A DNA stretch of 60,000 bases from Squalus acanthias (GCA_030390025.1 CM059431.1:152522001-152582000), one strand, 5' to 3'; counted from the first letter of the stretch, positions 19,896-57,549 are shown. Notes: a model not told the origin generated them from the sequence alone. Made by a program: numbers and translations.

Positions 19896-19904
19896 AGGTC
19901 CCTT

Positions 19905-24955: not shown

Positions 24956-24959
24956 GTAT

Positions 24960-28097: not shown

Positions 28098-30422
28098 ACC
28101 TCCAGTCATATTAGAATAGGGTCATCACCAGTAATGTTAGTATAGTGTCACTATCAAAAAAGTTAGTGAAGACCCACCAACAGTAATGTTAGAGTAGAAT
28201 CACCAACGGTGCTGTTGGAGTAGGATCATCACGGGTAATTCTAGAATAATGTCACCACCAGTAACGTTATAGTAGAATCACCAACAGTACTGTTAGAGTA
28301 GGATCACCACATTCAATTCTAGAGTACAGTCACCACCAGTAATGTTAGAGTAGGATCACCACCAGTAATGTTAGAGTAGAGTCACCACCAGTAATGTCAG
28401 AGTAGAGTCGCCTCCAGTAATGTTAGAGTAGGGTCACCACCAGTAATGTTAGAGTAGAGTCGCCACCAGTAATGTTAGAGTAGAGTCACCACCAGTAATG
28501 TTAGAGTAGAGTCGCCTCCAGTAATGCTAAAGTAGAGTCACAACCAATAATATTAGACGAAGGTCAGTACCAATTTTGTTCGAATACAGTCGCCTCCAGT
28601 AATGTTACAGTAGGGTCATCACCAGTATGGTTAGAGCAGAGTCTGCACCAGCAATGTTCGAGCAGAGTAAACAGCAGTAAGGTTAGAGTAGGGACTCAAT
28701 CAGTAATGTTAGACAAGTGTCATCACCAGTAATATTAGCGTAGATTCAGCAGTGGTAATGTTAGAATAGGGTATACACCAGTACTGTTAGACGAGTATCA
28801 CCACTAGTAATGTTAGTGTAGATTCAGCACCAGCAATAACAGAGTAGAATCAACACCAGCAATGTTCGAGTAGGGTCAACATCAGTAATGTAAGAGAAGA
28901 GTCACCAACTGTAATGTTAGAGTAGGGTCTCCACCAGTAATGTTAGACTATGTTCATCACCAGTAATATTAGAGTGGGGTCGGGTGCAGTAATTATATTG
29001 TAGAGCCACACGCCAGTAAAGGTAGACGAGTGTCATCACCAGTAATGTAAGAGTGGGATCAGCAGCATTAATGTTAAAGTAGGGTCACCACCAGTTTTGT
29101 CAATGCAGGATCACCACGAGTAATGTTAGAATAGGGTCTTCACCAATACTGTTAGAGTAGGGTCACCACCATTAATGTTTGAGTGCAGTCACCACCAGTA
29201 ACGATAGATTAGATTTAGCAGCGGTAATATTAGAATAGGTTCACCACCAGAAATGTTCGAGTAGACTAAACTCCAGTAACGTGAGACTAACCAACAGTAA
29301 TGTTAGAGTGCGGTCACAACCAATAATGTTACAGTATTGTCACAATCAGTAACGTTGGACTTGTGTCAACAGCAGCAATGTTATTCTACAGGCACCGCAA
29401 ATAAAGTTAGAATAGGGTCCCCACCACATATGTTAGAGTAGGGTCAATACCAGCAATGTTACAGTAGATTCATCATCAGCAATGTTAGAGTAGAGTCAGC
29501 ACCAGCAATGTTAGAGTGGAATCACCACCAGCAATGTTCGAGTTGAATCATCACCGTACTGTTAATTTAAGGTCACCATCAGTAATGTTGGTGTAGGGTC
29601 AATACCAGCAAAGTTAGAGTAGAGTCACCATCAGCAATGTTTGATTAGAGTCACCACCAGTAATGTTAGATTAGCGTCCGTACCTTTAATGTTAGAATAG
29701 GGTCACCACCAATAATTTTATAGTGGAGTCCCCACCAGTAATGTTAGAGTAGATTCATTGCCAGTAATGTTAGATCAGAATCACCAGCAGTAATGTTACT
29801 GTAGAGTCACCAGCAGTAATGTTAGAGTAGAGGCACCACCAGTAATTTTAGAGGAGGGTCTTCACAATTAATGTTAGTGTAGGGTCTCCATGCATAAGCT
29901 TCGGTTGAGTCATGACCAGTAATATTAGAGTAGAGACATCACCTTTAATGATAGATGATAGCCACTACCAGTAATATTAGTGTAGGATCACCACCAGTAA
30001 TATTAGAGTAGATTCACTGCCAGTAATGTTAGAGTGCGGTCACCAGCAGTAATGTTACTGTAGAGTCACCACCAGTAATGTTAGATTGGAGTCACCACCA
30101 GTAATGTTAGAGGAGGATCTTCACAATTAATGTTAGTGTAGGGTCTCCATCAATAATCTTCGATTGAGTCAAGACCAGTAATATTAATGCACGATCGCCA
30201 CCAGAAATATTAGAGTTGACACATCACCATTAATGATAGATGATGGCCACCACCAGTAATATTAGTGTAGGATCACCACCAGTAATATTAGAGTAGAATC
30301 ATCACCATTAATGTTAAGTGACGGCTACCACCAGTAATATTAATGTAGGATCACCACCAGCAATATTAGAGAAGGGTGACGACCAGTAATGTTAGGGCAG
30401 AGTCATCAACAGTAACGTTAAA
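28098..30422 (-). repeat. 26-bp minisatellite array, reverse orientation
   Basis: GTCACCACCAGTAATGTTAGAGTAG tandem copies. Confidence 0.97.
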
Positions 30423-30606
30423 GCGTTACTTATGTAATGGATGAGAGAAGATTTCACCAAATTATGTGAGGCCCTGAGAAGCTAACACAGGGACTTGGAG
30501 AGATGTTCCCTTCAGGGTTTACATGGCGGGCGCAGAGCACCTGCCCTCTGGAATTAACTCCCTTTCATTGTTTTTAATGGACGGAGTTTCGTGGACTCAG
30601 CTGTAC

Positions 30607-30730
30607 AATTTCCCCATTGGGCGCACTGAAGTGGAAAATCGCCCCTTGTTTGTTCAGTGGCTGTAACTAAGTTCAATTATTGTGTAACCTGATTTTCTCA
30701 CCACAGCACGGATTGTTCTATAAAGGGGGA
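30607..30730 (+). promoter_or_regulatory. Putative GPCR promoter: reverse CCAAT (TTTCCCCATTGG) and TATAAA at 30719-30724
   Basis: Block conserved upstream of all three paralogues; TATA lies 83 bp before the ATG in both intact genes. Confidence 0.6.
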
Positions 30731-30801
30731 GCATTTACGGATCTCAGATACACACCAGTCGGAACTGTAATGCAGGACAGAATTCACACAGACTTCTGAA
30801 A

Positions 30802-33392
30802 ATGGTACGGCCAATAATTCTACAGATAAAGGACATATACTATAATTTTCTCGCAGTCTTTGGTGTTCTCGGTAAGTCAATGCATCCTGTTGTTTAATAG
30901 AAGTTAACGATTTCACTGTTAATGATTATGTAACAGATTCCGTGAAGATCATTTATCTACCGGGATAATTTGGTAAATATCAGCGGGAGTCTTACCACCC
31001 CGCGCGGCCGGTTAGGCGCCATTCTGGCCGGCAGATCTTGGGCACGGGGCACTCAACTTTCCTCTCTACACTGAGGCAGGGCGAGGCTGATTCCCCGGCC
31101 CCTCCAACAGTACATTGTCCAGTAAAGGATGTGCTGCTTAGTATCCATAGTATTTATTTCTTTTGTCCCGTGGTTCCCTGTCTATTTTAAGTTCATAATT
31201 GCTCGGACTGCAGCTACCTCCACCTAACAGCTGAATCTTTTATTTAATCCAGATATTTCCAGTAATTGCTGCGAAATTATATTTAACCACTGCCTGAAGT
31301 ATGGTGGAAGGGAGTCTGAATTTGAGTCCTCCATATTGAATATTCAGTGTTTCATTCCTCTAAATCAATATTTTTATATATATAAATGACCTGGATAATG
31401 GAGTTCAGGGTAGAATTTCTAAATTTGCTGATGACACCAAACTTGGTGGTATGGCAAACAATAGCTGCAACAGAACATAGAAATGCTAGCAGAATGGGCA
31501 GACAAGTGGCAGATGGAATTTAATACAGAGAAGTGTGAGGTGTTGCATTTTGGCAGAAGGATCAGAGAGTGGCAATATACACTCAACAACACAGTTTTAA
31601 AGAGTGTTCAGGGTGAGAGGGACTTGGGAGTTAATGTGCATCGGTCCCTGATGGTGGCGGGGCATATTGAGAGAGTGGTTAACAAAGCATATGGGATCTT
31701 CGGCTTCATAAATACAGTTATTGATTACAAAAGCAGAGAAGTGATGCTCAAACTTTATAAAGCACTGGTTGGACCACAACTGAAGTATTGCGTCCAGTTC
31801 TGGTCAACACACTTCAGGAAGGATATGAAGGACCTTGAGAGGGTGCAGAGGAGATTTACCAACATGTTTCCGGGGATGGGGGTTCTTGGCTACAACGACA
31901 GGTTGGAGAAGCTGGATTTTGTTTCATAAGAGCAAAGGAGGTTGAGGGGTGATTTGATAGAGGCGTTTAAGATTATGGCGGGTTTGGATAGGCTAGACAG
32001 TGAAAGGCTGTTCCCACTAGTTGATGGTAAAAAAGACTAGGGGACACAGCTTGAAGGTTTTGGGTAAGAGATACCGGGGATTTGTGAGGAAAAACTGTTT
32101 TACGCAGTGAGTGGTGAGGACCTCGAATTTGCTGCCGACAAAAGTGGTGGAAGCAGAGACACTCAATGTCTTCAAGGGGAGACTGGTAAGCACTAGAGGG
32201 AAATAATCTTCTAGGGCTACGTCGATAGAGGCGGGGGTGGTGTGGGGGGAGGTTGGGACTGACTGGATTGCGCTACAGAGACCCGGCACGGACTCGATGG
32301 GCCGAATGGCCTCCCTCTCTGCCGTAATTACTGCATGGCTCTTTGGCACCTCAACGCTCGCCTATATGGCAAAACATCAAAGTAGATAACGCTAAGTAGG
32401 AACACATCTTAGCATTCCACCACAATAAGCTGCGAGGTTTATTAGGTGTCCCTGTTACTAAACTCTTCTCCCTCTTCCTTACAGCGAACCTGCTGACAAT
32501 CCTGATTCTCTCCAGAGGAAATTGCGGCCTTTCCAAATGTATCTCGGTCTACATGGTGGCCATGGCGACAGCAGATCTACTGGTCATCATCTTCCATATA
32601 CTGGTGTTTCAGATTTTCTGTTACCAGTTTCCGCATTCATTTCTGTCCTACACTGCCGTGTGTAAGTCCATTCATTACATCAATACCGTCACCCTGGATA
32701 TGTCGGTGTGGTTTACAGTCTTGTTCACTTTTGACCGATTTGTAACTATATGTTGTCAGAAGTTTAAAACAAAGTATTGCACAGTAAGAACTGCAGCAGC
32801 TGTTTTAACAACTGTCCTTGTACTGGTCTGTCTAGAGAATATGCCCTTTGCTTTCTCCTATGTACCTCAACGAATCATTAACAATGTTTCCTGGGGATGC
32901 CGCGCCAGTGAAGCCTTTTATTCTTCGCCTGCAGGCATAGCCTATTTCCGCATTCAAATTATTTTAGTTCCATGGTTTGCTGTTGCTTTGATATTATTGT
33001 TTAATTGTTTGACAGTCAGACGAATTGTAGTAAGCAGTAGGGCCCGCAGGGGACTCCGGGGTCACTGCAGTGAGAATCAGAGCGATCCAGAGATGGAGAG
33101 CCGGAGGAATTCCATCATTTTACTCTTCACTGTATCGGGCAGTTTTATACTGTTGTGGTTGACATCTGTCGTGAGTAACTTGAAGAACAGCCTGGCCGTT
33201 TACTACAAAGGTGAATATGAAACCGCTGCATACATCCTGGCTGCAAGCGGATATATGCTCATGTATTTGAGTTCCTGTACAAACACCTGCATTTATGCAG
33301 CGACACAAACCAAATTCAGGCAAGAGTTGGTGAAGGTGGTGAAATCTCCTTGCACATTGATTCTGATATTGGTTAATAAAATGAAGAATTAA
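30802..33392 (+). CDS. GPR139/GPR142-like class A orphan GPCR, 325 aa; exons 30802-30871 and 32485-33392
   Basis: Exon 1 MVRPIILQIKDIYYNFLAVFGVL, phase-1 GTAAG...TTACAG intron, then ANLLTILILSRGNCGLSKCISVYMVAMATADLL. Seven hydrophobic segments, FTFDRF, SSCTNTCIY; frame open to TAA. Confidence 0.9.
31375..32335 (+). mobile_element. CR1 3' fragment in the GPCR intron
   Basis: KFADDTK, WQMEFNTEKCEVLHFG, LYKALVGPQL. Absent from the introns of the other two paralogues. Confidence 0.9.
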
Positions 33393-34444
33393 AGCATAGC
33401 TTTCTGTCGTAACTAGAGCTCAACTGCAGCCCGTGTTCCGTTTTAGAATGGCAATCTTTCCCTTGGGACAAAAGCGGATTGTTCTTGTGAAAATGAACAG
33501 GTATCAGGAAATATTTTTCCCACTTTTTTCCATGTGTTTGATGTCTGCTGCTTTAACCGGGTGAACATAATCGATTCCCGCTAAAACAGCGCCCTTTCCG
33601 CTGAAGATTCAAAGAGAACAGTCATGACAGAGCTTCAGCAGTGGAGTAGAACATGTGCGCGTCAGCGTTAACTACCTCACACAGCAGCTACTGGAATGAG
33701 ACGCTCAGTTTAATTAACAGATAAACATTCCTATAGTGTGGACACAATGTGTTACAATGGTGTTTATTTGTAATTCTGTAATCTTGGTGTGAATGTTGCA
33801 GGCGCTGGACTCTCCATCAGACTCCGCCCCCCATTGTCACCTGGACCAATAGAACGGGGCCCTGTCTCCTGATCAGTGTCTAATGATGGAGACAGTAGGA
33901 GCTAGACTCATCAATGTGACATTAGACATCTTTGTTCACAGATATTTACTGAAAATCTCAAATAGTTATCAGTTTGTTGGAATGTTATAAGAGGGGAAAT
34001 AACTGTCTAACCCAATTAGTCCTTCTCAGCATTTACCCTCCAGCCGATCAAATAGTTCCTTTCACTTTATCCGCCCGGTCTCAAAATCAATTCATCCTAT
34101 TTTTGTTCATACAATTTAGTCTCCAATATTGACATCATTTCTGCCTCTGTTAATTTCACAGCTTCGCCACTCTCAATGTAAAGAGGAGTCTCTGACCACC
34201 CGTTCTAAATCTCTTCAATCCATTGTTTAATCTATAGCCGTTCGTTCCAGATCCCACAATTAATGGCAGCAGTCTGCTTCTTTCTATTCTGCCCCGTACC
34301 TTCTTAGCCGAAATCACCTGGGCACAACTCGCCAAAAAATCTCATCCTGTAATCAATTCACAATCTAGTGCAAGTCAGTTAAGTGTAATAAAGACAGTTA
34401 ATTGATTGCTTTCTCTTGGAGCCGGAAGCGGTTTACAAAGGATA

Positions 34445-37400
34445 TACAGCACAGAAACAGGACATTCTGCCCAACCAGTCCATGTCGGCGTTTAAGCTCC
34501 ACACGAGCCTCCTTTCATCTTTCCTCATCGAACTCATCAGCATAAACCTCTATTCCCTTCTCCCTCCTATTCTTATCTAGCCTCCCTTCAAATGTGTCTA
34601 TACTATTTGCTGGAACCACTCCCTGTGGTAGCAAGGTTCACATCCTCACATTCTATTAGTAAGAACTTTTTTATGAATTCCATATTTGATTTATTGGTGA
34701 CTAACTTACATTGATGGCCTTTAGTTTTGCTCTTCCCCACATGTTGAAACATTCTTTCTCTGTCTACTCTTTCAAAACCTTTTCATATTTTAAAGAGCTC
34801 TATTAGGTCACCCCTCAGCCTTCTCTTTTCAATAGAAAAGAGACCCAGCCTGTTCATACCTTCCTGATAGGTATATCCTCGCAGTTCTTGTATCATCCTT
34901 GTAAAAAGTTTTTGCACCCTCTACAGTGCCTCTATATCTTTTTTATAATTAGGCGACCAGAACTGTAGGCAGTTTTCCAAGGGAGGTATTACAAAGGTTC
35001 GATACAAGTTTCGCAAAATTCTCTACATTTCAATTCTATCCCTCTTGAATTAAACCCGAGTGCTTGGTTTGCTTTTTTATGTGTAGCTTGCATTTATAAA
35101 CCTGCGTCGCTAGTTTTAGTGATTTGTGTATTTGTAATCCAATATCGCTTTGCTTTTCTGTCCCATTTAGATTCTTATATTCCAAATAATATGTGACTTC
35201 CTTATTTTTCTTACTACCCATTTATCTGTGTTGAAATGCGTTTGCCTATTCTGCAAGTTTATTAATGTCTTCTTGTAATTTGTTGCAGCCCTCCTCAGTA
35301 TTGACTATCACAGCCGCACCCTTCTCCCAAATTTGGTGACATCCGACAATTTAGAAATAGTTTTCTTGATTCCAAAGTCTAAATTGTTAACATAAATTGT
35401 GAACATACATGGTCCCAGCACTGAACATTGTGGGACCCCACTTTTCATAATCTGCCGCTCCGTATAGCTAACCTTTACCCCTACTCTCTGCTTTCTGTCT
35501 TGAAGCCAGCTAACTATCCATTCTGCTGCTTGTTGCCTCACTCTGCTTTCTCTGACATTTTTCATTAGTCTGTTATGCAGTCCTTTATCAAAGGCATTTT
35601 TGAAATCTCGATAAATTACTTCTATTACTTTACCCTTGTCAACGCTCTCTGTTACCTCTTCAAAGAATTCAATGATTGTGGTCAAACACGACTTTCTCTT
35701 TCGAAATGCATGCTGACTAATCATTATTATATTTTTGGCTTCTAGATTTTCTTCTATTTTTTTCCTTTAGTACGGATTCCATTATTTATTCTAACACCGA
35801 TGTTAAGATGACTGCTCTATAGTCCCATGGACATGTTCCATTTCCCTTCTTAAATATAGGTATTACGTTAGCTATCCACCAGTCATTTTGAACTCTACCG
35901 TTTCCTAACGAATTATTAAATATGTGTAATAGTGTCTCTTCCGTCGCTTCCCTAGATTCCTTTCAAATGAACGAATGTAATCCATCTGAAGCAGGGCATT
36001 TATCCTGTTTGAGTTCGATTAGTGTATTTAATAGTTCTCCTTTTTCATTTTAAATGCGGTTATATCATTTCTAATCTCATTTTCCGATGTCACGTCTACC
36101 TGACCGTCTCCCTGGTAAATACTGAAGTAAAGTAATTATATAATATTTCTGGCATTTCGCTATCGCTGCCTTTGATTTTATCCTGACCGTTCCTTAATGG
36201 CTGTATTCCCATCCCAAAATTCCTTTTTAATTATGTGCCTGTAGAATATTTTATTACGTTGTTTTATGTTCCTTGCTAATTTAATCGCAAGTACCCATTT
36301 GCCTTCCTATTGTTTTTTTTACTTCTCTATTATCTTCGTAGGCTCCCTTGCCATGATCTCCCCTGTTGTCCATTTTCTTAGTGTATGCCTCTCCTTATCC
36401 TCAATTTTTCCCTTATGTCTTTATTCTTCCATGGCGTCTCATTAGTGTTTAGTTTGTTCTTGAATTTTAGTGGAATATATTTTCCTGGTCCTGCTGAATA
36501 AATGTTTCCCATTGTTGTTCTACATCATTGCTTGCCAATATTGTTGTACATTTTATTTTCCCAAGTTCTATTCTCAGCCCCTCAAAATCGCATTTTCACC
36601 AATCTATTACCCTGATCGTCGTCATACTTATGTCCTTCTCAATTATTACCTGAAATCGTATTATATTATGGTCACTATTATCTGGATGCTGCTCCACTTT
36701 TACTTCTCTTATATGCTCTGGTTCATTCCCCATTACTCGATCCAGTAGCTAATTCTCCCTTTTCGACTTCTTACCTATTGGAATCGAAAGGAGTACTTTG
36801 AACATAGAGGAACTCCATTCCCTTATTCCCTTTACCTAGCTCTTCTGTTCAATTAATTTCGGGGCAGTTTAATCTCCACATGTTTTTTATTTTTTTAATC
36901 TAATTTCTCTCATTTGTTTCAAAATTTCTGACTTCATCTCTTCTTCCACCATTAGTATTCTGTAGACTTCCTCTGGGATTGTGATTCATCCTTCATTATC
37001 TTTTATCTCTAGCAACTTGGATTCTATTTCTGTCTTACTGATAGCTGCGTCATTTTTTCTACTGCCATTATGTTACCTATAATAAGCACAACTACTCCAT
37101 CTCCCTTTTCCCTTCTCTATCTTTTCTAAATATACCCTGCAAAGTTTAATTCCAAGTCCTGATTTTTCTGTAGCCATTTCTTAGTATTCCCTACAATATC
37201 TGGTTCCTTGCAACATATTAGTGCCTCCATTTCCCTTGTGTTATTACGGACAGAGTGTGCATTGCTGTACGGTGTGCTAAACTCATGCTTAATAGCAGTT
37301 CTTATCGCTTTATTTTTAATCATATTTTCACTCTCTAGTACAATAACTCTATTAAATACCTAGAGTCTATGCCCTCCCTTAGTTTATTCCTTCCTATGCT

Positions 37401-40733: not shown

Positions 40734-40734
40734 A

Positions 40735-41815: not shown

Positions 41816-41837
41816 CCCAACAGACAAAGAGAAGGTT

Positions 41838-42078
41838 AATGTGAATCTGTGGAATTCTCTACCACAGAAGGTTGTTGAGGCCAGTTCGCTAAATATATTC
41901 AAAAGTGAGTTAGATATAATACTCACAACTAGGGGGATCAAGGGGTATGGCGAGAAAGCAGGAATGGGGTACTGAGTTAGCATGTTCAGCCATGAACGCA
42001 TTAAATAGCGGTGCAGGCTCGAAGGACCGAATGGTCTACTCCTGCACCTATTTTCTATGTTTCTATGTTTCTATGTTA
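41838..42078 (+). mobile_element. Short CR1 3' end, near-identical to the 3' end of 6354-10230
   Basis: VNLWNSLPQKVVEASSLNIFK and (TTTCTATG)n tail. Confidence 0.9.
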
Positions 42079-42842: not shown

Positions 42843-43310
42843 CACACAGAATGACGTCATACAGACTGCAGACAGAGTCGCACAGACAGCAGACTGATGC
42901 CACACAGACTGTAGACTGATGTAACACAGGCTGCAGTCAGAGTCACGCAGACTGCAGACAGAGTAACAAAGACTGCAGACAGAGTCTCACAGACGGCAGC
43001 CTGAAGTCACACAGATTGCAGAGTCACACAGACTGCAGACAGAGTCACACATACTGCAGACTGACGTCACATAAAATGCAGACAGTGTGACACAGACTGC
43101 AGTAAAAGTCACACAGACTGCGACAGAGTCACACAGACTGCAGACTCAAATCACACAGACTGCAGACAGTCGCACAGACTGCAGATTGACTTCACAAAGC
43201 CTGCAAACTGACGTCACACAGACTGTAGAAAGCGTCACACAGACTTCAGACAGAGTCACACAGACTGCAGATTGACGTCACACAGAACGCAGACAGATTC
43301 ACACAGACTT
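42843..43310 (+). repeat. 21-bp minisatellite (CACACAGACTGCAGACAGAGT)
   Basis: Roughly 22 degenerate copies. Confidence 0.93.
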
Positions 43311-43400
43311 GGCTTTATCAGGGCAGCTGTAGGCACTGAATGAAGCGTCTGCAGTTCCCACCACATCCACTAAGTGTCGCTGTTTCAATCGCACATCAGA

Positions 43401-43473
43401 GCCCCGATAGCTCAGTCGGTAGAGCAACTAAATTTTAATCTGTGTGTACAGGCTTCAAGTCCCTGTTCGGGCG
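43401..43473 (+). pseudogene. tRNA-Lys(TTT) pseudogene
   Basis: GCCCCGATAGCTCAGTCGGTAGAGC...TTTTAATCTG...TTCAAGTCCCTGTTCGGGCG, 73 nt; anticodon stem and B box mutated. Confidence 0.9.
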
Positions 43474-43759
43474 CTGCTTTCTATCAGTGGATTTAGACTT
43501 CAAAGCAACGACTTTGGTTATAACCTATCAGTAAAGATGTTTTATATTTCAAGAAAAATGAAAAATATTCATGTATTATATTGAGGCTGCAGGAAAGATC
43601 AGCGTGAATTACCAGTTTTTTATGGTGCTGAGGCCTATCCAATATTGTATAAACATTTAGCAGAATTTCCTTGCTTTGTACTCTATTCCTCTGTTAATAA
43701 AGCCAAGGTTCCCATGTGTTTTTTAACTACATTCTCAACTTGTCCCGCCAACTTGTGTA

Positions 43760-44284
43760 TTGTGTGCAGTTTTGGTCGCCTTATCTGAGGAAGGATGTTC
43801 TTGCCATGGAGGGAGTGCAGCGAAGATTTACCAGACTGATACCTGGGATGGCAGGAATGACGTATGATGATAGATTGGGTTAATTAGGCTTATATTCGCT
43901 AGAGTTTAGAAGAATGAGAGGGGTCTCATTGAAACTTATAACATTCTAACAAGACTGGACAGATTAGATGCAGGAAGGATGTTCCCGATTGCGTGTGAGT
44001 ACAGAACCAGAGGTCACAGTCTAAGTCTAAGGGGTAAGCCATTTAGGACTGAGATGAGGAGGAATTTCTTCACCCAGAGAGTGGTGAACCTGTGGAATTC
44101 TCTACCACAGAAGGCAGTTGAGGCCAATTCATTAAATATATTCAAGAAGGAGATAGATATATTTCTTAAGGCTAAAGGGATCAAGGGATATGGGGAGAAA
44201 GCAGGGACAGGTAACTGAATTTGGATGATCAGCATTGATCTCATTAAATGGCGGAGCAGGCTCGAGGGAACGAAGGGCCTACTC
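43760..44284 (+). mobile_element. CR1 3' fragment; its remaining tail lies at 46238-46270
   Basis: RRNFFTQRVVNLWNSLP. The 3' UTR is split by another CR1. Confidence 0.9.
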
Positions 44285-46237
44285 ATAGAAACATAGAAAC
44301 ATAGAAGATAGGAGCAGGATTAGGCCATTCGGCCCCTCGAGTCTGCTCCGCCATTCGATGAGATCATGGCTGATCATCCAAACTCATTACCCTGTATCTG
44401 CCTTCTCCCCATATCCCTTGATACCTTTAGCTTTAAGAAATATATCTAACTCATTCTTGAATATATTTAATGACTTGGCCTCAACTACCCTCTGTGGTAG
44501 AGAATTACACAGGTTCACCACTCTCTGGGTGAAGAAATTCCTCCTCATCTCTGTCCTAAATCCCTTACCCCCTATCCTTAGATTATGACCCCTGGTTCTG
44601 GACTCTCCGACCATCGGGAACATTCTTCCTGCATCTAGTTTGTCCAGACCTGTCAGAATTTTATATGTTTCGATGTGATCCCCTCTCATTCTTCTATACT
44701 CCAGCGAGTATAAGCCCAATCGACCCAATCTCTCCTCATATGTCATTCCTGCCATCCCAGGTATCAGCCTTGTGAATCTTCGCTGAACTCCCTCCAAGGC
44801 AAGAACATCCTTCCTCAGATAAGGCGACCAAAACTGCTCACAGTACTCAAGGTGTGGTCTCACCAAGGCCCTGTACAACTGCAGCAGGTCATCCCTGTTC
44901 CTAAACTCAAACCCTTTCGCTATGAAGGCCAACATACCATTTGCCTTCTTCACCGCCTGCTGCACCTGCATGCTTACCTTCAGCGACTGGTGCACAAGGA
45001 CACCCAGGTACCCTTCTCCCAATCTATTGCCATTCAGATAATAGTCTGCCTCTCTTTTTTTGACACCAAAGTGGATAGCCTCGCATTTATCCACGTTATA
45101 TTGCATCTGCCACGCTTCGGACCACTCACCCAACATGTCCAAATCATCCTGGAGTTTCTCGGTATCCTCCTCGCAGCACACACTCCCACCCAGCTTTGTG
45201 TCATCTGCAAACTTGGAGTTATTACATTTAGTACCCTTATCTAGATCATTAATGTATATTGCGAATAGCTGGGGTCAAAGGACCGATCCCTGCGGTACCC
45301 CACTAGTCACTGCTTGCAACTCGGAAAAAGACCCATTAATTCCTACTCTCTGCTTTCTGTCCGCCAACCAGTTCTCTATCCAAGTCAATACCTTGCCCCC
45401 AATCCCATGTGCCTTAACTTTACACGCTAATCTCTTATGCGGGACCTTATCGAAAGCCTTTTGAAAGTTCAAATACACCACATCTACTGGTTCTCCCTTA
45501 TCTGTTTTCCCAGTTACATCCTCAAAAAATTGCAGTAGATTAGTCAAGCACGATTTACCTTTTGTAAATCCATGTTGACTTTGTCCGATCCGGTCACTGT
45601 TTTTCAAGTGCTCAGCTATTACATCCTTTATAATGACTCTAGCATTTTCCACACTACCGATGTCAGGCTTACCGGTCTGTAATTCCCCGCTTTCTCTCTA
45701 CCACCCTTTTTAAATAGAGTAACATTAGCTACCCTCCATCCATGGGTACAGTTCCAGATTCCATCGAATGTTGGAAGATGATCAGCATTGCATCTACTAT
45801 TTCTCGGGCCACGTACTTAAGTACCCTAGGATGTAGACTGTCAGGCCCTGGGGATTTATCGGCCTTCAATCCCGTCAATTTCCCTAACACCATTTCCCTG
45901 CAAATACTGATTTCTTTCAGTTCCTCCCTTTCATCAGACCCTATGTTCTGCAACATCTCTGGGAGGTGATTTGTGCCCTCCTTTGTGAAGACAGAACCAA
46001 AATATGCATTTAATTGGTCTGTCATTTCTTTGTTCCCCATTATAACTTCCCCCGCTTCTGACAGCAATGGACCTACACATGATTTCACTACTCTTTTTCT
46101 ATTCACATATCTATAAAAACTCTTACAGTCAGTTTTTATGTTCCCTGAAAACTTACATTCATATTCTATTTTCCCCTTCTTAATTAATCCCTTTGTCCTC
46201 CTTTGTTGAATCCTAAACTTTTACCAATCCTCAGGGT
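44285..46237 (-). mobile_element. 5'-truncated CR1 (RT region) nested in the previous CR1
   Basis: (CATAGAAA)n tail, RT ORFs, flanked by TACTC direct repeats (44280-44284 and 46238-46242). Confidence 0.92.
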
Positions 46238-46299
46238 TACTCCTGCTCCTATCTTCTATGATCTATGATTTGTGGACATAAACCCCCGGCGGTGAGATT

Positions 46300-47472
46300 A
46301 GGCCTTCGATAAGGTACCCCATAATAGACTGATGAACAAGATCAGAGAATGCGGAGTCAGGGGACAAGTAGCAGAATGGATTGCTGGCTGGTTTCGGAAA
46401 AAAAGCAGAGTGTAGGAGTAAAGGGTAGCTATTCAAAGTGGCAGAAGTTGGGTCGAGGTATTCCACAAGCATCAGTGCTGGACCACTGCAGTGCACAATT
46501 TACATTAACAATTTAGACTTAGGAATCAAAAACGCAATTTCTAAATTTGCAGATGACATCAAATTGCGGGGTGTGGGGGGGGGGGGGTGGTGAGATAGTC
46601 AATACTGAGGAGGACTGCAACAAGTTACAGGAGGACATGAATAAACTTGCAGAATGGGCATATAATTGGAAAATGAAGTTCAACACTGATAAATGTGAGG
46701 TATTACATTTTGGTAGGAAGAATAGGGAGATCACTTATCACTCGGAGTGTTTGCTTCTAGGTTGGGTAGAGAGACAAAGGGATCTAGGAGGACAAATACA
46801 CAAATCACTAAAAGTTGCGACACAGGTTAGAAAGGCCATAAATATCCATACCAAGCAATATGGTTAATTTCTAGAGAGATAGAATCGAAAAGTAGGGAAG
46901 TTATGCTAAACCTGTATCGAACCGTGGTTCGACCACACTTAGAGTGCTGCGTACAGTTCTGATCACCATATTTTAAAAACGCATTGAGCGGCACTGGAGA
47001 GCGTGCTGAAAATATTTACAAGGATGATACTAGAAATGTGAGAGTATAAAAATCATGGAAAGGATGAACAGGCTGGGTCTCTTTTCTCTTGAAAAAAGAA
47101 GGCTGAAGGGTAATCGAATAGAGGTCTTTAAAATTATGAAAAAAATGATAGAGTGGATACAGAGAGAATATTTCCACTTATGGGGAAGAGAATAACTAGA
47201 GGCCATTAAGAAAAGATAGTCACCAAGAATACAATAGGAAAATCAGAAGAAATTTATTTACCCAAAGAGTGGTGAGAATGTGGAACTCGCTATTACAGGG
47301 AGAGGTTGAAGCGAATAGGATAGATGCATATAAGGGGAGGCTAGTCAATGAGGGATAAAGCAAATGGAGGATTATGCTGATAATTTTAGATGAGGAAAGA
47401 CGGGAGGAAGTTCGTGTGAAGCATAAACGCCGGCATGGACAGGTTGGGCCGAATAGCCTGTTTCAGTGCTGT
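46300..47472 (+). mobile_element. Degraded CR1 RT/3' fragment, same subfamily as 34445-38760
   Basis: KFADDIK, WKMKFNTDKCEVLHFG. Confidence 0.85.
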
Positions 47473-48495
47473 ATAGAGTCATAGAGTCATAACGGCAAAG
47501 AAGGAGATCATTCGGCCCATCGAGGCCGTGCCGGCTCTCTGTCGAGCAATTCAGTCAGTCCCATTTACCAGTTCTATCCCCGTAGCCCTGCAAGTTTATT
47601 TCCCTCAAGTGCCTATCCAGTCTCCCCTTGGAAACATTGGGCCAGAAATTCGGCTCCCTGGCTTCCCGCCGGTGCAAGGATCGCGCACGCACCTACCTAC
47701 CGCGCCTGCCGTTGACCTCATGGGGACTTAGGCTCCTGGGCCTCCCCCAACTGCCGGCGTTCAAAGCTTGTGTATCCCAGGGGCGTAGTTAGTACGATGC
47801 GTCCCCTAGGATCACGTGGGCCATAGAGAGCCAATGGCAGCAGACCATCTTTCATTCATAGATTTCACAGGAAGACCTGTCAAATCTATGAATACAGATC
47901 GGTCCCAAAACTGCCCTAAAACTACAAAAAAAAATTAAATCAAATTTTTAAAATAACTATAAATTACATTAATTAACTATTTTAAAAGCAAATTAAAATT
48001 TTTGAAAAAAATAATTAATTTTTTAAACGGGGCTCAAACTAAACTTACCTTTCTTTAAAGTAATTCAAAAAAAAATCTGTGAAAAAAATGTTTAAATTTT
48101 AATAAAATCATCACTTACCTTGTTAAATGAAGGCCTTGCGCATCCTTTTAAAAAGTGTATCTTCTCCGTGCTTACCTTCACCGAGGAACCTGTAAAAAAA
48201 TCCGAAGTGCGAGGCGAACGCGCTGGCCATCCGGCGTGTGCGTTCGACCTCTGAACCCCTTTCCTCAGGGGAACGGAAGTGCCGGTTTCTCGCGCATGCG
48301 CAGTGCACACATGAAACCGGCACTTTCATTCCGTCCACGGGTGAGTATACAGTGCGTACTCAGCCGACAACCTCCGAATTTCTGCCCCATTCGGTGTGTC
48401 CGCTTCCACCACTTCCGTCGGCAGCGAGTTCAAGGTCCTCACCACTCGCTGCGTAAAAAAAGTTCTTCCTCACAACCCCCTGTATCTCTTGCCCA
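47473..48495 (-). mobile_element. CR1 3' end interrupted by a non-autonomous DNA transposon
   Basis: (ATAGAGTC)n tail; CR1 sequence is contiguous across 47638/48392. Confidence 0.8.
47639..48388. mobile_element. 750-bp non-autonomous Harbinger-type element (second family)
   Basis: TIRs GGGCCAGAAATTCGG and CCGAATTTCTGCCCC (14/15 match); 3-bp TSD ATT. Confidence 0.9.
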
Positions 48496-48497
48496 AC

Positions 48498-48648
48498 CAT
48501 AGAAAAATAGGAGCAAGAGTAGGCCATTCGGCCCTTCGAGCCTGCTCCGCCATTCAATATAATCATGGCTGATCCTCTATCTCAATACCATATTCCCGCT
48601 CTCTCCCAATAACCCTTGAAGCCTTTTGCTTCTAGAAATCTATCTATC
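48498..48648 (-). mobile_element. Short CR1 3' end
   Basis: CATAGAAAAATAGGAGCAAGAGTAGGCCATTCGGCCC, as in the other CR1 tails. Confidence 0.8.
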
Positions 48649-48657
48649 AAATGGTAA

Positions 48658-48779
48658 TGTCAGAAGTGGGTTTCTAACCCTCGCCTCCGAGAAGGGTACC
48701 AGAATTCACCAACTTTTGGTAAGGTAAGGATTAACATGTTTTATGAGTCTGGCGCCTTAGACCATTCAGCCATTTATAC
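48658..48779 (-). pseudogene. Intron-containing tRNA-Leu(CAA) pseudogene
   Basis: Minus strand: ATGGCTGAATGGTCTAAGGCGCCAGACTCATA-[~38 nt]-TTCTGGT...GGAGGCGAGGGTTAGAAACCCACTTCTGACA. Confidence 0.85.
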
Positions 48780-48976
48780 AACTGTGTCCCCTACTACTTA
48801 TACCACCAACTGGTGGAGACAACCTTTCCCCGTCTAGCCTATCCAAAGTGCGAGAAATATTTCCTGATACCTGTTCATTTTCACAAGACTTTCGGTTTAT
48901 GTCCCAAAAGAAAGGCGTTAATTCTCAAACGGACACATGCTGTAATTGAGCTCGAATCAGGACAGGAAGATATAGT

Positions 48977-50790
48977 TTAATTATTCATTTAATTAACCAA
49001 TATCAAAATCAATGTCCAAGGAGATTTGACCAACTTCTTGAGCTCTTCCCTGAATTCGGTTCGGGGTCGCTGCATAAATACACGTTTTTGGACAGTAACT
49101 CAAATACATGAGCATATATCCGCTTTCAGCCAAGATTTATTCAGGGGCTTCATAATCATCCTTGTAGTAAACGGCCAGGCTGTGCGTGAAAATACTCACG
49201 GTAGCTGTCATCCGCGACAGTAAAAAGCTGCCCAATACAGTGAAGAGTAAAATGATGGATTTTCTCCAGCTCTCCTCTCTGGATCGCTCTGATTCTCACT
49301 GCTGTGGCCCCGGAGTCCCCTGCGGCCCCTACTGCTTACTAAAATTCGTCTGACTGTCAAACAATTAAACATTCATATCAAAGCAAAAGTCTGCAATGGA
49401 AATAAAATACTTTGTAGTTGGAAGAACGATACACATCCAGACGATGAAAAAAAGGCTTCATTCGAGAGGCGACCCCAGGAAACATTGTTAATGATTCGTG
49501 GAGATTCATGGGAGAAACGAAAGGGGATATATTCAAAACATAACAGCTCAGTGACAGTTATTAAACCTGCTGCGGCAGTTCACACTGTGCAATACTTTGT
49601 TTTAAACTTCTGACAACATTTGGCTAGAAATCGGTCAAAAGTGAACGAGACTGTAAACCGCACCGACATATCCAGGGTGACAGTATTGATGTAATGAATG
49701 GACTTCCACACGGCAGTGTAGGACAGGACTGAATGTGGAATGTGGTAACAGAATATCAGAAACACCAGTAAATGGGAGATGATGACCGAAGATCTGCTGT
49801 CGCCATGGCCACCATGTAGACCGAGATACATTTGGAAAGGCTGCAATTTCCTCTGAAGAGAATCAGGATTGTCAGTAGGTTCGCTGTAAGGAAGAGGGAG
49901 AAGAGGTCAGTAACGGAGATACTCAGATAAATCTCACAGGATATTGTGGGGGAATGCTCAGATGTGTCCCTACTTAGAGTTACGGACACTGATTTTTTTT
50001 TACTACATAGGTGAGCGTTGAGGAGATTTGATTGAGAAGAAACGAAACTTTGAATATTCAATACAGAGGGACTCAAATTCCGACTCCCTTCCACCATATT
50101 TCAGACAACGGTTAAATATAATTTCGCTGCAATTGCTGGAAAGATATGGCTTCAATAAAACATTCAGCTGAGAAAAAAATATTTCAATACATGTCGAAAA
50201 CTGCGCTTTTTCAATTTACGATCGCCCCGGGGGAGCTGCTCGGTAACAGAGCGGGTGCTGGTGGAGACGCGAAGTTTCTTTGCAGCCGAGCGGAGTGGAG
50301 CAACTCCCTGAGCGTCAATTGTTGCTCATAATATCTTTCAAAGTCCCCTGTTGGGGGGAGGTTCCTGCAATCCGATCAATTACCAACTTATAATAAACAG
50401 GGAACAAATGTACAGATGAGATTGTAACCATGCACACTAGGCCGCACATTCTGTAGTGAACCATATGGAATTGCAGGGGTCGCGGAATCAGCCTCGCCCT
50501 CCCTCAGTATAGAGAGGAAAGTTGAGCGCATGGTGCCCACGATCTACCGGACAGAATAGCGCTTCACCGGCCGCGTGGACTGGTAGGATTCCGACAGATA
50601 TTTATCGACTAATCCCGGTGGATGAATGACTCTGCAATGGGGACCTTCATGGAATCTGTTACATAATCATTAGCAGTGAGACACTCAACAGCTGTTAAAC
50701 AACAGGATACATTGACTGACTGAGAACACGAAAGGTTGCAAGAAAATGATACTATATGTCCTTTATCTGTAGAATTATTCGCCGTGCCAT
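48977..50790 (-). pseudogene. GPR139-like GPCR pseudogene; exons 50790-50721 and 49883-48977
   Basis: Closely paralogous to 30802-33392 (KSIHYINTVTLDMSV...FTFDRF). TAG in exon 1, frameshift near 49780, weakened donor (GTCAGT) and degraded TATA. Confidence 0.9.
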
Positions 50791-51192
50791 TTTTAGAAGA
50801 TTGTGTGAATTCTCTCCTGCTTTACAGTTCCGTCTGGCGTGTATCTGAGGTCCATAAATGCTCCCTCTTTATCGAACAATCCCTGCCTGTTGAGAAAGTC
50901 AGGTTCCATAATAATTGACCTTAGGTCCAGTCACATAAGTAACACGGGGCGATTTTCCGCTTTAGTGCGCCCAATGGGGAAATTCTAAAGCTCAGTCCAT
51001 GAGTCTCCGTCCATTGAAATCAATGAACGGAAGTTAATCACAGAGCGAATGCGCTCTGCGCCGGTCATGTGATCCCTGACGCGATCATCTCTCCAAATCC
51101 CTGTGTTTGGTTCTTGGGGCCTCACAAAATTTGTTGAAAACTTATCTCATCCATTATATCATTAAAATGTGTTTTGTACGATCATGAAGCGT

Positions 51193-52178
51193 GTTGATGA
51201 CTCGGCCTTAACATTACAGGTGGTGATCCGACACTAACATTACTGGTGGTGACCCTACACTCACATTACTGGTGGTGACTCTACTCTAACATTACTGGTG
51301 GTGACTCTACTCTAGCATTACTGGTGGTGACCCGACTCTAACATTACTGGTAGTGACTCTATTCTAACATTACTGGTGGTGACTCCACTCTAACATTACT
51401 GGTGGTGACTCCACTCTAACATTACTGGTGGTGACTCTACTTTAACATTACTGCTGGTGACTCCACTCTAACATTACTGGTGGTGAGTCTACTCTAACAT
51501 TACTGGTGGTGCCTCTACTCTAACATTACTGGTGGTGACCCTACTCTAACATTACTGGTGGTGACCCTACTCTAACATTACTGGTGGTGAGTCTACTCTA
51601 ACATTACTGGTGGTGACTCTACTCTAACATTACTGGTGGTGACTCTACTCTAACATTACTGGTGGTGAGTTTACTTTAACATTACTGGTGGTGACTCTAC
51701 ACTAACATTACTGGTGGTGACTCTACTCTAACATTACTGGTGGTGAGTCTACTCTAATATTACTGGTAATGACTGTACTCTAACATTACTGGTGGTGACT
51801 CCACTCTAACATTACTGGTGGTGACTCCACTCTGACATTACTGGTGGTGAGTCTACTCTAATATTACTTTTGGTGACTCTACTCTAACATTACTGGTGGT
51901 GCCTCTACTCTAACATTACTGGTGGTGACCCTACTCTTACATTACTGGTGGTGACTCTACTCTAACATTACTGGTCGTGAGTCTACTCTAACATTACTGG
52001 TGGTGAGTCTACTCTAACATTACTGGTGGTGTTTCTAATCGAACATTACTGGTGGTGACTCCACTCTAAAATTACTGGTGGTGACCCGACTCTCACGTTG
52101 CTGGTGCTGAGTCTATTCTCCAATTTGTGGTTGCAATCCTCCTCTAATATTACTTGTGGTGAGCCTACTTTCACATTA
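51193..52178 (+). repeat. 26-bp minisatellite array, forward, highly homogeneous
   Basis: Near-perfect copies at ~51240-52070. Confidence 0.97.
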
Positions 52179-53050
52179 AACAAATTAATCTGGCCTCAGT
52201 CTCCACAAGGGTTGTGGGGTCGTCATTCCCACAAAGACTCTCATGAACAGATGCATCAGCGACAGGTAGATAGGTGAAGACGAGTTCAACCAGGTTTTTC
52301 TCTCTTGATGGTTCTATCATCAGCTCCTGCCGGCCCAATATAGCCTTTAGTGGCGTCCGGAATAAATGCTGAACACTCTCCGGAACACTCTCTCTCGATT
52401 GTGTACCGGTGTGCTGTCTCATCTGGTGGGTCTGTCCTGCTGATGCAACAGGACATACCCAGGGATGCCGATGGAGCAGTCTGGGATGTTGGCTGAAACG
52501 TATGGTTCTGTGAGTATCACTATCTCAGGCTGGTGCTGGACTCGTCTGTGGGACAAGGCTCCAACTTCCGCCACAAGTCCCCAGATGTTAGCGAGGAGAA
52601 CAGTGCACGGTCGACAGAGCTGGCTCTGCCTTTGCCGTGTCCGTATCCTCCGATGTCCAGGACGAGGCCGGGTAATCCATCCGGCTTTATTATACTAATT
52701 TTTAGCGGTTTGCTACAACTCAGTAGCTTCCTAGAACGTTTCAGACGGCAGTTTAGAGTCAACGACATTGCGTTGGTCTGAAGTCACTTATAGGCCAATC
52801 GGGTGAGGACGGCAGGTTTCTATCCCTAAAGGACATTGGTGAACAAGTTGTGTTTTTACAACAATCTGACAGCATCATGCTCATCGTTAATGTTACTCTC
52901 TTTTTATTAGATATTAATTTAATTAGCTGACCTCAAATTTACAAACTGCCACGGGGAGTGGAGTGGGGGTGGAAATCACGTCTTCGGATAATTTGTCCCG
53001 CACTCTGGATTACTACTCCAGCAAGATAACCATTATGCTACCGTACCCGC
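52179..53050 (-). mobile_element. Inverted paralogous copy of the SINE-headed LINE fragment at 27076-28097
   Basis: Reverse complement starts GCGGGTACGGTAGCATAATGG and contains the same endonuclease remnant. Confidence 0.8.
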
Positions 53051-55385
53051 GGTAGGGTCGTCATCAGTAATGTTAGAGCTGCGTCCTCGCCAGTAATATT
53101 AATGTGGCATTATCATCCATAATGATAAGGTAACGCGAACACCAGTAAAATTAAAGCGAAGTCATCATCATTAATGTAAGTGTAAAGGCACCACCATTGA
53201 TGTTAGAATAAGTTCACCACTAGTAATGTTAGAGGAGGGTGGCCACCTGTTATGTTAGATGGGAGCCATTGTCAATAACGTTAGAGTTGAATCTCCACCA
53301 GCAATGTTTGAGTATAGTCACTCAAAATAATGTTAGTGTAGAATCATCTCTAATAATACTGGGTCCGAATATTCAACAGTAACATTATAGAACAGTAACA
53401 AACAGTAATGCTGCAGTCGGGGGACAATCAGAAATTTTAGACTAACTTATAACCAGTAACGTTAGAGTTGAGTCATGACAAGTAACGTTAGAATAGAGGC
53501 GCCACGGATAATTTTAGAGTAGAGTAACCATCAGAAATGTTGGAGTGTGGTCACCACCAGCAATGCTAGAGTAGGGTCACCACCAGTAATGTTGGAGTAT
53601 GGTCACCACCAGTAATGTTAGAGCAGGTTCGCCATCATTTATATTAGAGCATGGTCGCCATTATTTATATTAGAGTAGGGTCAGCAGCAGTAATTTTAGA
53701 GTAGCGACACCAACAGTAATGTTAGAGTTGGGTCACCACCAGTATGTTTTAGTAGGGTCACCAGCAGTAATGTTGGAGTACTTTTACCATCAGTAATATT
53801 AGAGTACAGGCAACTCACGTACTGTTAGATTAGAGTTAGCAACAATATTGTTAGAGTCGGGTCACCATCAGCAATGTTAAAATCGGGTCACCACCAGTAA
53901 TGTTAAAGTCGGGTCACCACCAGTAATGTCAGACTAGTTCCACCACCAATAATGTTAGAATTGGTTCGCCAGCGTTAATGATAGTCCAGGGTCACCACCA
54001 CTAATGTTCGACTATATTCGCCGCCAGTAATATTAAAGTATGATCCCCGCCAGTAATATTAGATAAGATTCAGCACCACTCATGTTAGAGTAGGCTCACC
54101 ACCAGTAATGTTAGAGTAGGGTCACCATCAATAATATTAGAGTTGGGTCACTATCTGTAATGTTAGAGTAGGGTTATCACCACTAATGTGGGACTACTTT
54201 CACCGCCAGTAATGTTAGAGTAGGGTCGCCCCCGTTCATGTAAATTTAGGGTCGCTACCATTAATGTTAGAGTAGGGTTATCATCAGTACTGTTAGACTA
54301 GGTTCACCACCAGGGTCACCATCAGTAATGGTGGAGTCGGATGACTACCAGTAATGGTCGTGTAGGTTCACCTGCAGTAATGTTAGAACGGGCCACTTAA
54401 AGTAATGTCAGATTAGGGTCATCATCAGTAATGTAAGACTCGTGTCACCAACAGTAATGTTTAACTAGGATCACCACCAATAATATTAGCGTAGGATTAC
54501 CACCAGTAATGTTAGCGTAGATTCACCAACAGTTATGTTAGAGTATATTCGCCACCAGTAATGTTAGAGTAGCATCTTCACCAGTAATGTTAGAGTAGAT
54601 TCACCACCAGTAATGTTAGAGTATATTCACCACCAGTAATGTTAGCGTAGGGCCATCAGCATTAATGTTAGAGTAGGTTCACCACCAGTAATATATAAGT
54701 AGGATCAGCACCCGTAATGGTAGAGTAGGATCACCTGCAGTAATGTTAGAGAAGAGTCATCACAAATAATGTTAGTGTAGGCTCACCACTAGAGAGGTTA
54801 GAGTTGGGTTACCACAAATAATGTGAGAGAAGGGTGACCACCAATAATGTTAAATGAAAGTCACCACCAGTAATGTTAAAGTATGATCACCGCCAGTAAT
54901 ATTAGAGTAAGGTCACCACCACTAATGCTAGAGTAGGTGCACCACCAGTAATGTTACAGTAGGCTCACAACTAGTAATTTTAGAGTAGGGTCACTAGCTG
55001 TAATGTTAGATTACGATCAACACCAGTAATGTTAGAATAGGTTCACCACCAGTAATGTTAGAGCAGAGTCAACACCAATAATGTTAGAGTAGGGTCACCA
55101 CCAGTAATGTTAGAGTAGAGTCACCACCAGTAATGTTAGAGTTGAGTACCACCAGTAATGTTACAGTAGAGTCACCACCAGTAATGTTACAGTAGAGTCA
55201 CCACCAGTAATGTTAGAGTAGGGTCACCACCAGTAATGTTAGAGTAGGGTCACCACCAGTAATGTTAGAGTAGAGTCACCACCATTAATGCTAGAGTTGT
55301 GTCATAGCAATAATGTTTGAATAGGGTCACCACCAGTATTTTTAGATTCTATTCACCAACAGTAGTGTCAGCGCCGATTCATCAC
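53051..55385 (-). repeat. 26-bp minisatellite array, reverse orientation
   Basis: Tandem copies, purest at ~55080-55290. Confidence 0.97.
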
Positions 55386-55570
55386 CACATTGTAAAACCA
55401 ATTTTAAATATGTAATGGATGAGATAAGATTTCACCCGATTATTATGAGGCCCCAAGAACCTAACGCCTTGACCGGGAGTGGTGCTCCCTTCAGAAATCA
55501 CATCTCTGGCGCAAAGCTTACTTTCCAATCATTAATTTTAATGAGCGGATTTTCATGTACTGAGGGACAC

Positions 55571-55695
55571 AATTTCCCCATTGGCACCCCCGGTGCACAG
55601 TAGCGGAAAATTGTTTGTTACGTAATTGTAAAAAACGTCAGTTATTGTGGAACCTGGTTTTCTCCCGGGGCACCGAGTGTTCTATAAAGGGGGAG
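55571..55695 (+). promoter_or_regulatory. Putative GPCR promoter: reverse CCAAT and TATAAA at 55683-55688
   Basis: Paralogous to 30607-30730. Confidence 0.6.
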
Positions 55696-55765
55696 CATTT
55701 ACGGATCTCAGATACACTCCAGTCAGAAACGGAAACCGGACAGAATTCATACAACCTTCTATAAA

Positions 55766-57549
55766 ATGGCACGGCCAATAATTCTACAGATAAAGGAAAT
55801 ATACTATCCTTTTCTCGCAGCATTTGGTATTCCCGGTAAGTCAGATTATTCTGTTGCTTAATATCGGTTGACTATCTCAGTGCTAATGATTATGTAACAG
55901 ATTCCGAGAATACTCTCATTGCAGAGTCACTTATCCAGCGGGCTTAATTGGTGAATATCAGCGGGAATTCGACCAGTCAGCGCATTCTCCACCGGGCGCT
56001 CAGGATTCCTCCCTATACTGTGGGAGGCGAAGCTGATTCCGGGGCCCTTCCAACAGTATAACGTTCACGTCAGAATGTGTTGCTTATTGTCCATGGTCAT
56101 CATCTCATTTGTGGCGTTGTTCCCTCTCTGTTCCACGTTGTTCATTGCTCGGACTGCAGCCACCTCCACCCAACAGGGGGCGTTGAAAGGTATTTTGAAC
56201 AATCACTGCCGCTCAAGGAGCTTCTCACCTCCGTTCGGCTGCAAAGAACCTTCGGGGTTCCTCCAGCTCCCGCTCTGTTCCCGAGTATTTCGGCCCGGGG
56301 TGATTATAAATAGGAAAATTCCAGTTTATCGACATAAATAGCATGTTTGCATTTCAGCTGATTTTTTTATTTAAGTTCATATCTTTCCAGTAAACGCTGT
56401 GAAATAATGTTAAATATTTTTCGAGGACTGAATGAGCCATGCTGGAAGGATGCGAGATTTTCAAACCCTCTACTGTTTTTAAACAGGATGCAGTCAACGC
56501 TCGCCGATATATAAAAAAAGTATTAATGTGCTAAACCCTAAGTAGGGACACATCAGCATTCGCCCACAATATGCTATGAGATTTAGCTGAGTTTCTCCGT
56601 TACTGACCTCTTCTCCCTCTGTCTTACAGCGAACCTACTGACAATCGTGATTCTCTCCGGAGGAAAATGCGGTCTTTCCAAAGGTATTTCTGTCTACATG
56701 GTGGCCATGGCAACAGCAGATCTACTGGTCATGATCAACCATGTGATAGTGAAACACATTTTCAATTATCACTTTCCACGTTCATTCCTTTCCTACACCG
56801 CGGTTTGCAAGTTAATTGTGTACGTGAATTGTCTCACACTAGATATGTCGGTGTGGTTTACAGTCTTGTTCACATTTGACCGATTTGTAGCTATAAGTTG
56901 TGAGAACTTTAAAACAAATTATTGCAAAATGAGAACGGCTGCCTCTGTTGTAACAACCGCCACTGTCCTCTTCTGTTTAAATAACATCCCCTTTTGGTAT
57001 GCATATGAACCTGAGCGAATAACGAACAATGTTCCCTGGGGATGTCGATCCAGAGTGGAGTTTTTTCTATCATCTGCAGGTACAGCGTTCTCCTGGTTAC
57101 AAAGTATTTTAATTCCATGGCTTCCTTTTGCTTTGATAAGAATGTTTATTTGTTTGACAGTCAGACGTATTTTAGTGGCCAGTAGAGCCCGCAGGAGACT
57201 CCGGGGTCACAGCAGTGAGAATCAGAGCGATTCAGAGATGGAGAACCGAAGAAAATCCATTATCTTACTGTTCAGTGTATCAGGTAGTTTTATAGTGTTG
57301 TGGCTGACAGCTGCCGTGAGTTTTTTAACTACCAGACTGACAAACATCGAGCATTATCGAGGCGATTATGCAGCCCCTGCATATGTCGCCACAGAAACCG
57401 GATATCTACTCATGTATTTCAGCTCGTGTACAAACACCTGCATTTATGCAGCGACACAAACTCAATTCAGGGAAGAGCTGAAGAAGGCGGTGAAATCTCC
57501 TTGGGCATTGATTCTGACTTTGGTTAAATTAAATGTAAAATCAAACTGA
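55766..57549 (+). CDS. GPR139/GPR142-like class A orphan GPCR, 329 aa; exons 55766-55835 and 56630-57549
   Basis: Exon 1 MARPIILQIKEIYYPFLAAFGIP, phase-1 GT-AG intron, then ANLLTIVILSGGKCGLSKGISVYMVAMATADLL; FTFDRF, SSCTNTCIY; open frame. Confidence 0.9.

Follow-up and report, generated by a model that had tools for sequence, protein, structure and literature searches.

Why does a tandem array stand at the same place and on the same strand ahead of gene after gene in one receptor family? The question arose from a 60,000-nucleotide stretch of the 3.71-Gb Squalus acanthias assembly (C7:152,522,001-152,582,000, hereafter the window), in which three related genes for G protein-coupled receptors (GPCRs) each follow an array of a 26-bp satellite unit. 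The original prediction, made from this sequence alone, held that satellite, promoter and two-exon receptor form the unit by which the family expanded. At all three genes the array stops ~380-400 bp above the start codon (ATGs at 30802, 50790 and 55766) and the unit reads in the sense direction of the gene, including the one on the minus strand; these coordinates, the orientation and the two-exon structure were confirmed. The module is real and is restricted to one clade of the receptor family. On balance, and with modest confidence, we favor the explanation of an old minisatellite that occupies the 5′ edge of genes in one elasmobranch orphan-GPCR clade, likely fixed once in an ancestor and likely acting as a self-renewing, recombination-prone edge, not a required switch.

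Association of array and gene

Sampling the genome for the unit and for the genes, along the lines proposed with the prediction, showed a same-strand association in both directions. Starting from genes, we fetched 7-8 kb for each of the 20 best protein matches; exon 1 was reached in 18 of these close paralogues, and in all 18 a sense array abuts the promoter. In 23/23 aligned promoters, 340-501 bp separate the last good unit from the ATG, and homology across these 23 copies extends to the terminal, degenerate units beside the promoter. A census of 150 kb found the array at all five clade promoters and none near the one distant paralogue (42% identity). Starting from arrays, a rare unit variant yielded 49 matches that were grouped into 29 arrays, 23 of which terminate at a promoter on the same strand (traced through fetched sequence for 14 and by coordinates only for nine, where a promoter element lies 0.5-4.8 kb downstream). 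Five others run off the contig end, one is still array after 56 kb, and none ends elsewhere.

An exact 24-mer of the unit occurs 12,102 times in the genome (reversed control: 0), a count that corresponds to some 2-7 Mb of array when scaled up. Because the match list starts at C7:136.96 Mb and lists appear contig-sorted, we infer that the 24-mer is absent from C1-C6; a scan of JGI metagenomes with it gave no match. Array length across paralogues runs from 0.6 kb to more than 50 kb, most gene-picked arrays measuring 1-5 kb, and the longest (e.g. on C31) were read at their ends and at probes. With its short tandem unit and strongly variable copy number, the array is a minisatellite, or variable number tandem repeat. 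The unit consensus is identical in four read sets with different coded organism labels, in which promoter, intron and exons are covered to at least 80%, and in run X11 one contig spans L015:4721-5005, from the terminal units into the promoter. Shares of 0.11-0.19, obtained for labels B, D, F and H, were left out of this comparison. The run search listed no RNA data set, a result with no bearing on expression. Two mirror-image modules with ~50-kb arrays and matching insertions occupy G000:C3535:26,500-217,000 and may be a large inverted duplication or a duplicate created in assembly.

Receptor family and clade limits

The receptors encoded by genes 1 and 3 of the window match Pfam 7tm_1 at 62.9 and 61.3 bits (curated cut-off 30.5) and are class A (rhodopsin-type) GPCRs. 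In RefSeq and UniRef they match shark and ray models called "probable G-protein coupled receptor 139" (up to 76% identity), which belong to the same protein family and were named automatically. In a PDB search, GPR139 chains reached E 1.9e-4 over residues 1-167, and the prolactin-releasing peptide receptor was stronger at 1.5e-6. GPR139 orthology was dropped on this weak similarity to human GPR139; "GPR139-like", the name used in the prediction, is an automatic label, and the receptors form a separate, expanded family distinct from GPR139 orthologues. Protein searches of the genome returned 4,539 to 5,194 first-look candidates, figures that are not copy numbers. Our literature search, whose coverage largely excluded subscription journals, returned no paper on the expansion of this family or on its upstream arrays, and the main text of the catshark genome paper (PMC11979771) has no mention of "139", "orphan" or "satellite".

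Beyond the clade, the 26-bp array was found at none of 20 distant paralogue loci (48-56% identity; on C1, C3, C18, C26, C29, C30 and unplaced contigs), among which exon 1 was located in 16 and 1-5 kb of upstream sequence was read. Six extra C1 loci were not counted here, since only one of them could be read as far as exon 1. The claim that every GPR139-like gene has an array is thus wrong genome-wide, and the proposed expansion unit holds for one clade, on the two-way association and the homologous terminal units, and fails for the rest of the family. In quick trees, a branch with 99% support sets apart the array-bearing genes, with ray proteins on the same side.

The distant subfamilies, which lack the array, have also grown to many copies. 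In a tandem C1 cluster of distant paralogues at 98.9-99.6 Mb (L046, L101, L103, L105 and L106), a 31-bp array, in two loci accompanied by a 27-bp one, lies upstream of exon 2; it is unrelated to the 26-bp unit, is read as intronic and was co-duplicated in 5/7 loci of its subfamily, so passenger arrays are normal in these clusters. We dropped the idea that other subfamilies have unrelated upstream arrays of their own: on our reading the C1 27- and 31-bp arrays lie in introns, and the sister loci of L047 and L050 lack the 54-bp and 46-bp arrays found there, respectively. Both observations, expansion without an array and co-duplication of an unrelated one, suit a pure hitch-hiker that stood upstream of one ancestral gene and was copied along with no effect on expression or duplication rate, a reading that the introns and flanks described below also address.

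A related repeat and the age of the array

A second subfamily, sampled at ten loci (75-80% identical to a Heptranchias protein), carries a 48-bp repeat or its remnant in nine, on the same strand, and in eight the repeat reaches to ~450-750 bp from the ATG. The 48-mer aligns to a dimer of the 26-bp unit with a score of 68 (best of 2,000 shuffles, 33), is absent from 160 kb of distant loci, and has degenerate 26-type units at its proximal end. Judged by these alignments, it is a diverged dimer of the 26-mer. Blocks of at least ten matching units persist at four of the ten loci and one to three units at five; L132 has none, though its exon 2 is free of stops. A 48-type 24-mer has 1,236 genome occurrences, and among nine groups of 48-type matches on C7, a same-strand gene or promoter element lies within 1.3 kb of three and within ~20 kb of two, the other four being unassigned. 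Exact copies of the promoter element occur 104 times for the 26-type and 80 times for the 48-type; both counts are minima and also take in redundant contigs. The 48-type motif forms a very regular array at G000:C29:12,064,524-12,071,173, where its period is 47 bp.

Introns align within each of the two subfamilies, at 68-80% even in the deepest 26-type pairs, and in 0/64 pairs between them. Since 26-type introns still align, persistence of the array inside that group needs no selection, which again suits a hitch-hiker; survival of the array past the loss of intron homology between the subfamilies speaks against one. In the trees, the 48-type subfamily forms a group (94%) together with proteins from Heptranchias, Pristiophorus, Heterodontus, Scyliorhinus and Rhincodon. 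Together, these genera span both shark superorders. The array is therefore likely older than the split of the superorders, on the grouping of the proteins; the arrays themselves were read in Squalus acanthias loci. The main text of the catshark genome paper dates the elasmobranch ancestor to more than 270 million years ago (PMC11979771).

Origin of the unit and regulatory readings

In both array subfamilies and in 8/16 distant promoters, a conserved core element, TGTTTGTT followed by TGACTGTAACTAA, lies above a TATA-like box, and it is kept across subfamilies of ~50% protein identity. Promoters of one array-free subfamily (L048, L050, L052 and L057) carry this element tandemly duplicated two to three times, with a 48-bp unit. 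The reverse strand of the 26-bp unit matches the 3′ half of the L057 core element and the following bases in 25 of 31 paired columns, a match that dinucleotide-preserving shuffles equal in 4/1,000 and 1/300 trials (p ~0.004, post hoc); the TGTTTGTT half is missing from the unit. The unit likely derives from an inverted piece of the family's promoter element; the match behind this reading was noticed post hoc, in a single subfamily.

Such an origin would suit a multimerized cis-element, bound by the same factor as the promoter element and setting either the expression level or the chance that a receptor is picked. The unit resembles an element that is itself conserved across distant subfamilies and duplicated in one of them, the position and strand of the array outlasted intron homology, and the receptor genes are under purifying selection (median dN/dS, the ratio of nonsynonymous to synonymous substitution rates, 0.41; 55 pairs from 11 exon-2 sequences). 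A precedent is the x21 multimer of mouse odorant receptor transgenes (10.1101/2022.05.05.489571). The units themselves, however, argue the other way. Among 2136 units, neither a homeodomain footprint nor a promoter-ward gradient was found: the unit hexamer is TAATGT (1112), with the Lhx2-type TAATGA in 104 and TAATTG in one, and the TAATGTTAG core is conserved only a few points above the same bases elsewhere in the unit. On these counts, we set aside an x21-type multimer of TAATGA/TAATTG sites. TAAT is lost from the 48-bp unit, the unit lacks half of the core element, 48-type loci mostly keep few units or none, and the most homogeneous array of the window heads a pseudogene. The multimeric cis-element named in the prediction is therefore left with one suggestive sign, the likeness of the unit to a conserved promoter element, and several against it; we regard it as unlikely. 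More generally, four observations speak against a required switch: the missing footprint, the missing CpG, the spread from 0.6 to more than 50 kb and the loss of arrays at 48-type loci with uninterrupted exons. A gene-switch role of some kind is possible. In its boldest form, a family of hundreds of shark and ray genes would have made a satellite from its own promoter piece before the main shark lineages split, each subfamily's array being a natural, copy-number-tunable enhancer of choice or dosage and the counterpart of x21; we find this quite doubtful.

Long arrays might instead act as heterochromatin beside promoters, a silencing or insulating platform that keeps most paralogues off and leaves sparse or single-receptor expression. 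Arrays of 17 to more than 50 kb do end within 1 kb of promoters, and the arrangement may resemble that of repressed receptor clusters. The unit consensus, however, lacks CpG and most gene-picked arrays are just 1-5 kb long, which makes such a platform very improbable.

Flanks, deletions and the favored explanation

The two sides of the module differ. Distal flanks are common only to close copies and to the group of genes 1 and 2, whereas 3′ flanks align over at least 500 bp in 116/171 pairs. L015 and L017 are 94-97% alike from an insertion within the array through the examined 3′ flank, yet over 5-6 kb their distal flanks have nothing in common. Arrays are also where two deletions end. This asymmetry and the deletions, together with the survival of the array past intron homology, count against the hitch-hiker, which we hold to be quite unlikely despite the alignable 26-type introns. 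They also lend indirect support to the recombination substrate suggested in the original prediction, although insertions can mimic them. A transposon with a captured gene was rejected, as no distal sequence is common across copies and hence no termini are shared; target duplications were not searched for.

Array, promoter and gene were co-duplicated, as their homologous junction shows. We hypothesize that a minisatellite edge of the kind favored here began when a 25-26-bp piece of the promoter element was copied inverted and then amplified by slippage. Array end, promoter and gene were then carried together through every later duplication, as the sequence shows, so that position and strand of the array were set by descent. 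Unequal exchange would lengthen, shorten and homogenize the arrays, producing blocks of 0.6 to more than 50 kb and the 48-bp dimer unit of one subfamily. Exchanges or deletions ending within arrays, in part visible here, would swap distal flanks, join arrays to gene fragments and remove promoters. The minus strand of the unit holds ACTGGTGG, one letter off the bacterial Chi octamer, a sequence often compared with minisatellite cores.

Several points weigh against this explanation. Only two deletion junctions were read, and large transposon insertions inside arrays, common here, can equally give unshared distal flanks; in one pair, L005 and L008, 2.1 kb of the distal flank is in fact shared (92%), and the 3′ homology may in part be 3′ untranslated region. 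The place of the array was kept between the 26- and 48-type subfamilies while intron alignability was lost, which fits selection as well as self-renewal. A C7 array near 136.96 Mb, outside the 29-array sample, has no promoter in the following 11.7 kb. Many unplaced contigs are near-identical copies, so the array and gene counts overstate independence. The trees are quick ones with SH-aLRT (Shimodaira-Hasegawa-like approximate likelihood ratio test) support only, the second of 105 columns, and the match that ties the unit to the promoter is, as noted, post hoc and from a single subfamily.

A satellite that can be traced as tied to one gene clade for so long is rare, and here a promoter element is its plausible source and the unit has diverged in a subfamily-specific way. 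Array-bearing and array-free clades share one genome, which makes the effect of a satellite on the speed of gene birth and death directly testable. With the unit as a ready-made probe, members of a large elasmobranch GPCR family, met in our searches only as automatic gene models, can be found and typed. Should the array tune expression, a mechanism known from transgenes would have a natural counterpart.

Organization of the window

Gene 1 (plus strand, 30802-33392; exon 1 30802-30871, exon 2 32485-33392) is open and encodes a 325-aa class A GPCR. Its plus-strand array of ~89 units (28098-30420) is followed by a promoter, predicted from conservation, at 30421-30801, with the core element at 30646-30671 and a TATA-like box at 30718-30728. 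Gene 3 (plus strand, 55766-57549; exons 55766-55835 and 56630-57549), encoding a 329-aa class A GPCR, is likewise open, with a plus-strand array of ~89 units (~53057-55377) and a putative promoter at 55378-55765 (core element 55611-55636, TATA-like box 55682-55692). Gene 2 (minus strand, 48996-50790) has its array, as had been predicted for all three paralogues, and is a pseudogene: exon 1 (50790-50721) contains a stop, and exon 2, from 49883, contains frameshifts and stops. In its putative promoter (50791-51200, minus strand) the core element (50945-50920) has decayed and the TATA-like box (50873-50863) is changed. The array of gene 2 (~51202-52163, minus strand, ~37 units) is the most homogeneous, with 1.9 mean mismatches per 26-bp unit against 4.2 and 4.5 for genes 1 and 3; the exact 25-mer is present in 3/~89, 6/~37 and 4/~89 units of genes 1, 2 and 3, respectively.

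Three further minus-strand blocks had escaped the initial list of arrays: 11283-15196 (~151 units), 16858-18865 (~77 units) and 24959-27071 (~81 units, the distal end). The first two are split by an LTR-like (long terminal repeat) insertion at 15200-16853, possibly a solo LTR, with TG...CA ends and CATT on both sides. Because a fourth block, left of the window in the 150-kb census, is joined to the last third of an exon 2 that lies ~3.4 kb outside the window, we read all of these as a single insertion-broken array aimed at a dead gene whose exon-2 remnant lies left of the window. The notion that they are orphan arrays, and so counter-examples to the link with genes, was dropped for the same reason.

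Two spacers, neither assigned a strand, separate pairs of head-to-head arrays. The first (27071-28097), with a fragment resembling a long interspersed nuclear element (LINE), is homologous in reverse to the second (52171-53056); 27079-27732 and 52351-53048 are 69% alike. This homology indicates that a head-to-head cassette was duplicated, so the window holds two copies of it and the three genes cannot be counted as independent. The LINE-like fragment recurs at L048:4203-4543, L050:3734-4079 and L052:6900-7585, a few hundred bases upstream of the promoters there, as a common repeat or a shared insertion. Elsewhere, clusters of CR1-like LINE fragments occupy 6353-10170, 19200-24950 and 43750-47500; many begin with a common short tandem end, and several lie within or between arrays. 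A Harbinger-type transposon spans 1095-4576, with a DDE_Tnp_4 open reading frame on the plus strand and a Myb/SANT one on the minus strand, and a 21-bp minisatellite unrelated to the 26-bp unit (~22 copies) lies at 42856-43309.

Comparison with known systems

The prediction knew of no description of such a module, which was too strong: at human 19p12, beta-satellite blocks are known to run through a KRAB (Krüppel-associated box) zinc-finger gene cluster, the subject of a report whose title ties them to the expansion of the cluster (Eichler et al. 1998, doi 10.1101/gr.8.8.791, as cited in PMC3018141 and PMC2671837). Two features of a 19p12-type cassette were found here, satellite blocks through a tandem gene cluster and co-duplication at a homologous junction (23 copies). 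It is not the beta-satellite/zinc-finger cassette itself, which the unit and the gene rule out: a 26- or 48-bp unit and a GPCR, as opposed to a 68-bp beta monomer and a zinc-finger gene. As far as those citing accounts describe 19p12, the shark array further differs in abutting the promoter at a fixed distance, in its subfamily-specific units, in its resemblance to a promoter element and in a likely far greater age.

The other two systems are more distant. The ZAV macrosatellite lies less than 2 kb from ZFP37, which is transcribed away from it, and has been proposed as a regulatory element (PMC3018141); in that account it is a single locus with a much larger repeat and, unlike the shark array, no co-duplicated module. 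Like the shark array, x21 is a short tandem unit ahead of a GPCR promoter, being an engineered multimer of the H-enhancer homeodomain site placed ahead of mouse odorant receptor transgenes (10.1101/2022.05.05.489571). According to that source, x21 was functionally tested, depends on TAATGA and has 4-5 copies, whereas the shark array is TAATGA-poor and has tens to thousands. By its sequence organization, the module appears closest to the 19p12 beta-satellite/zinc-finger cluster: a real, likely old and clade-specific association of a satellite with a gene.

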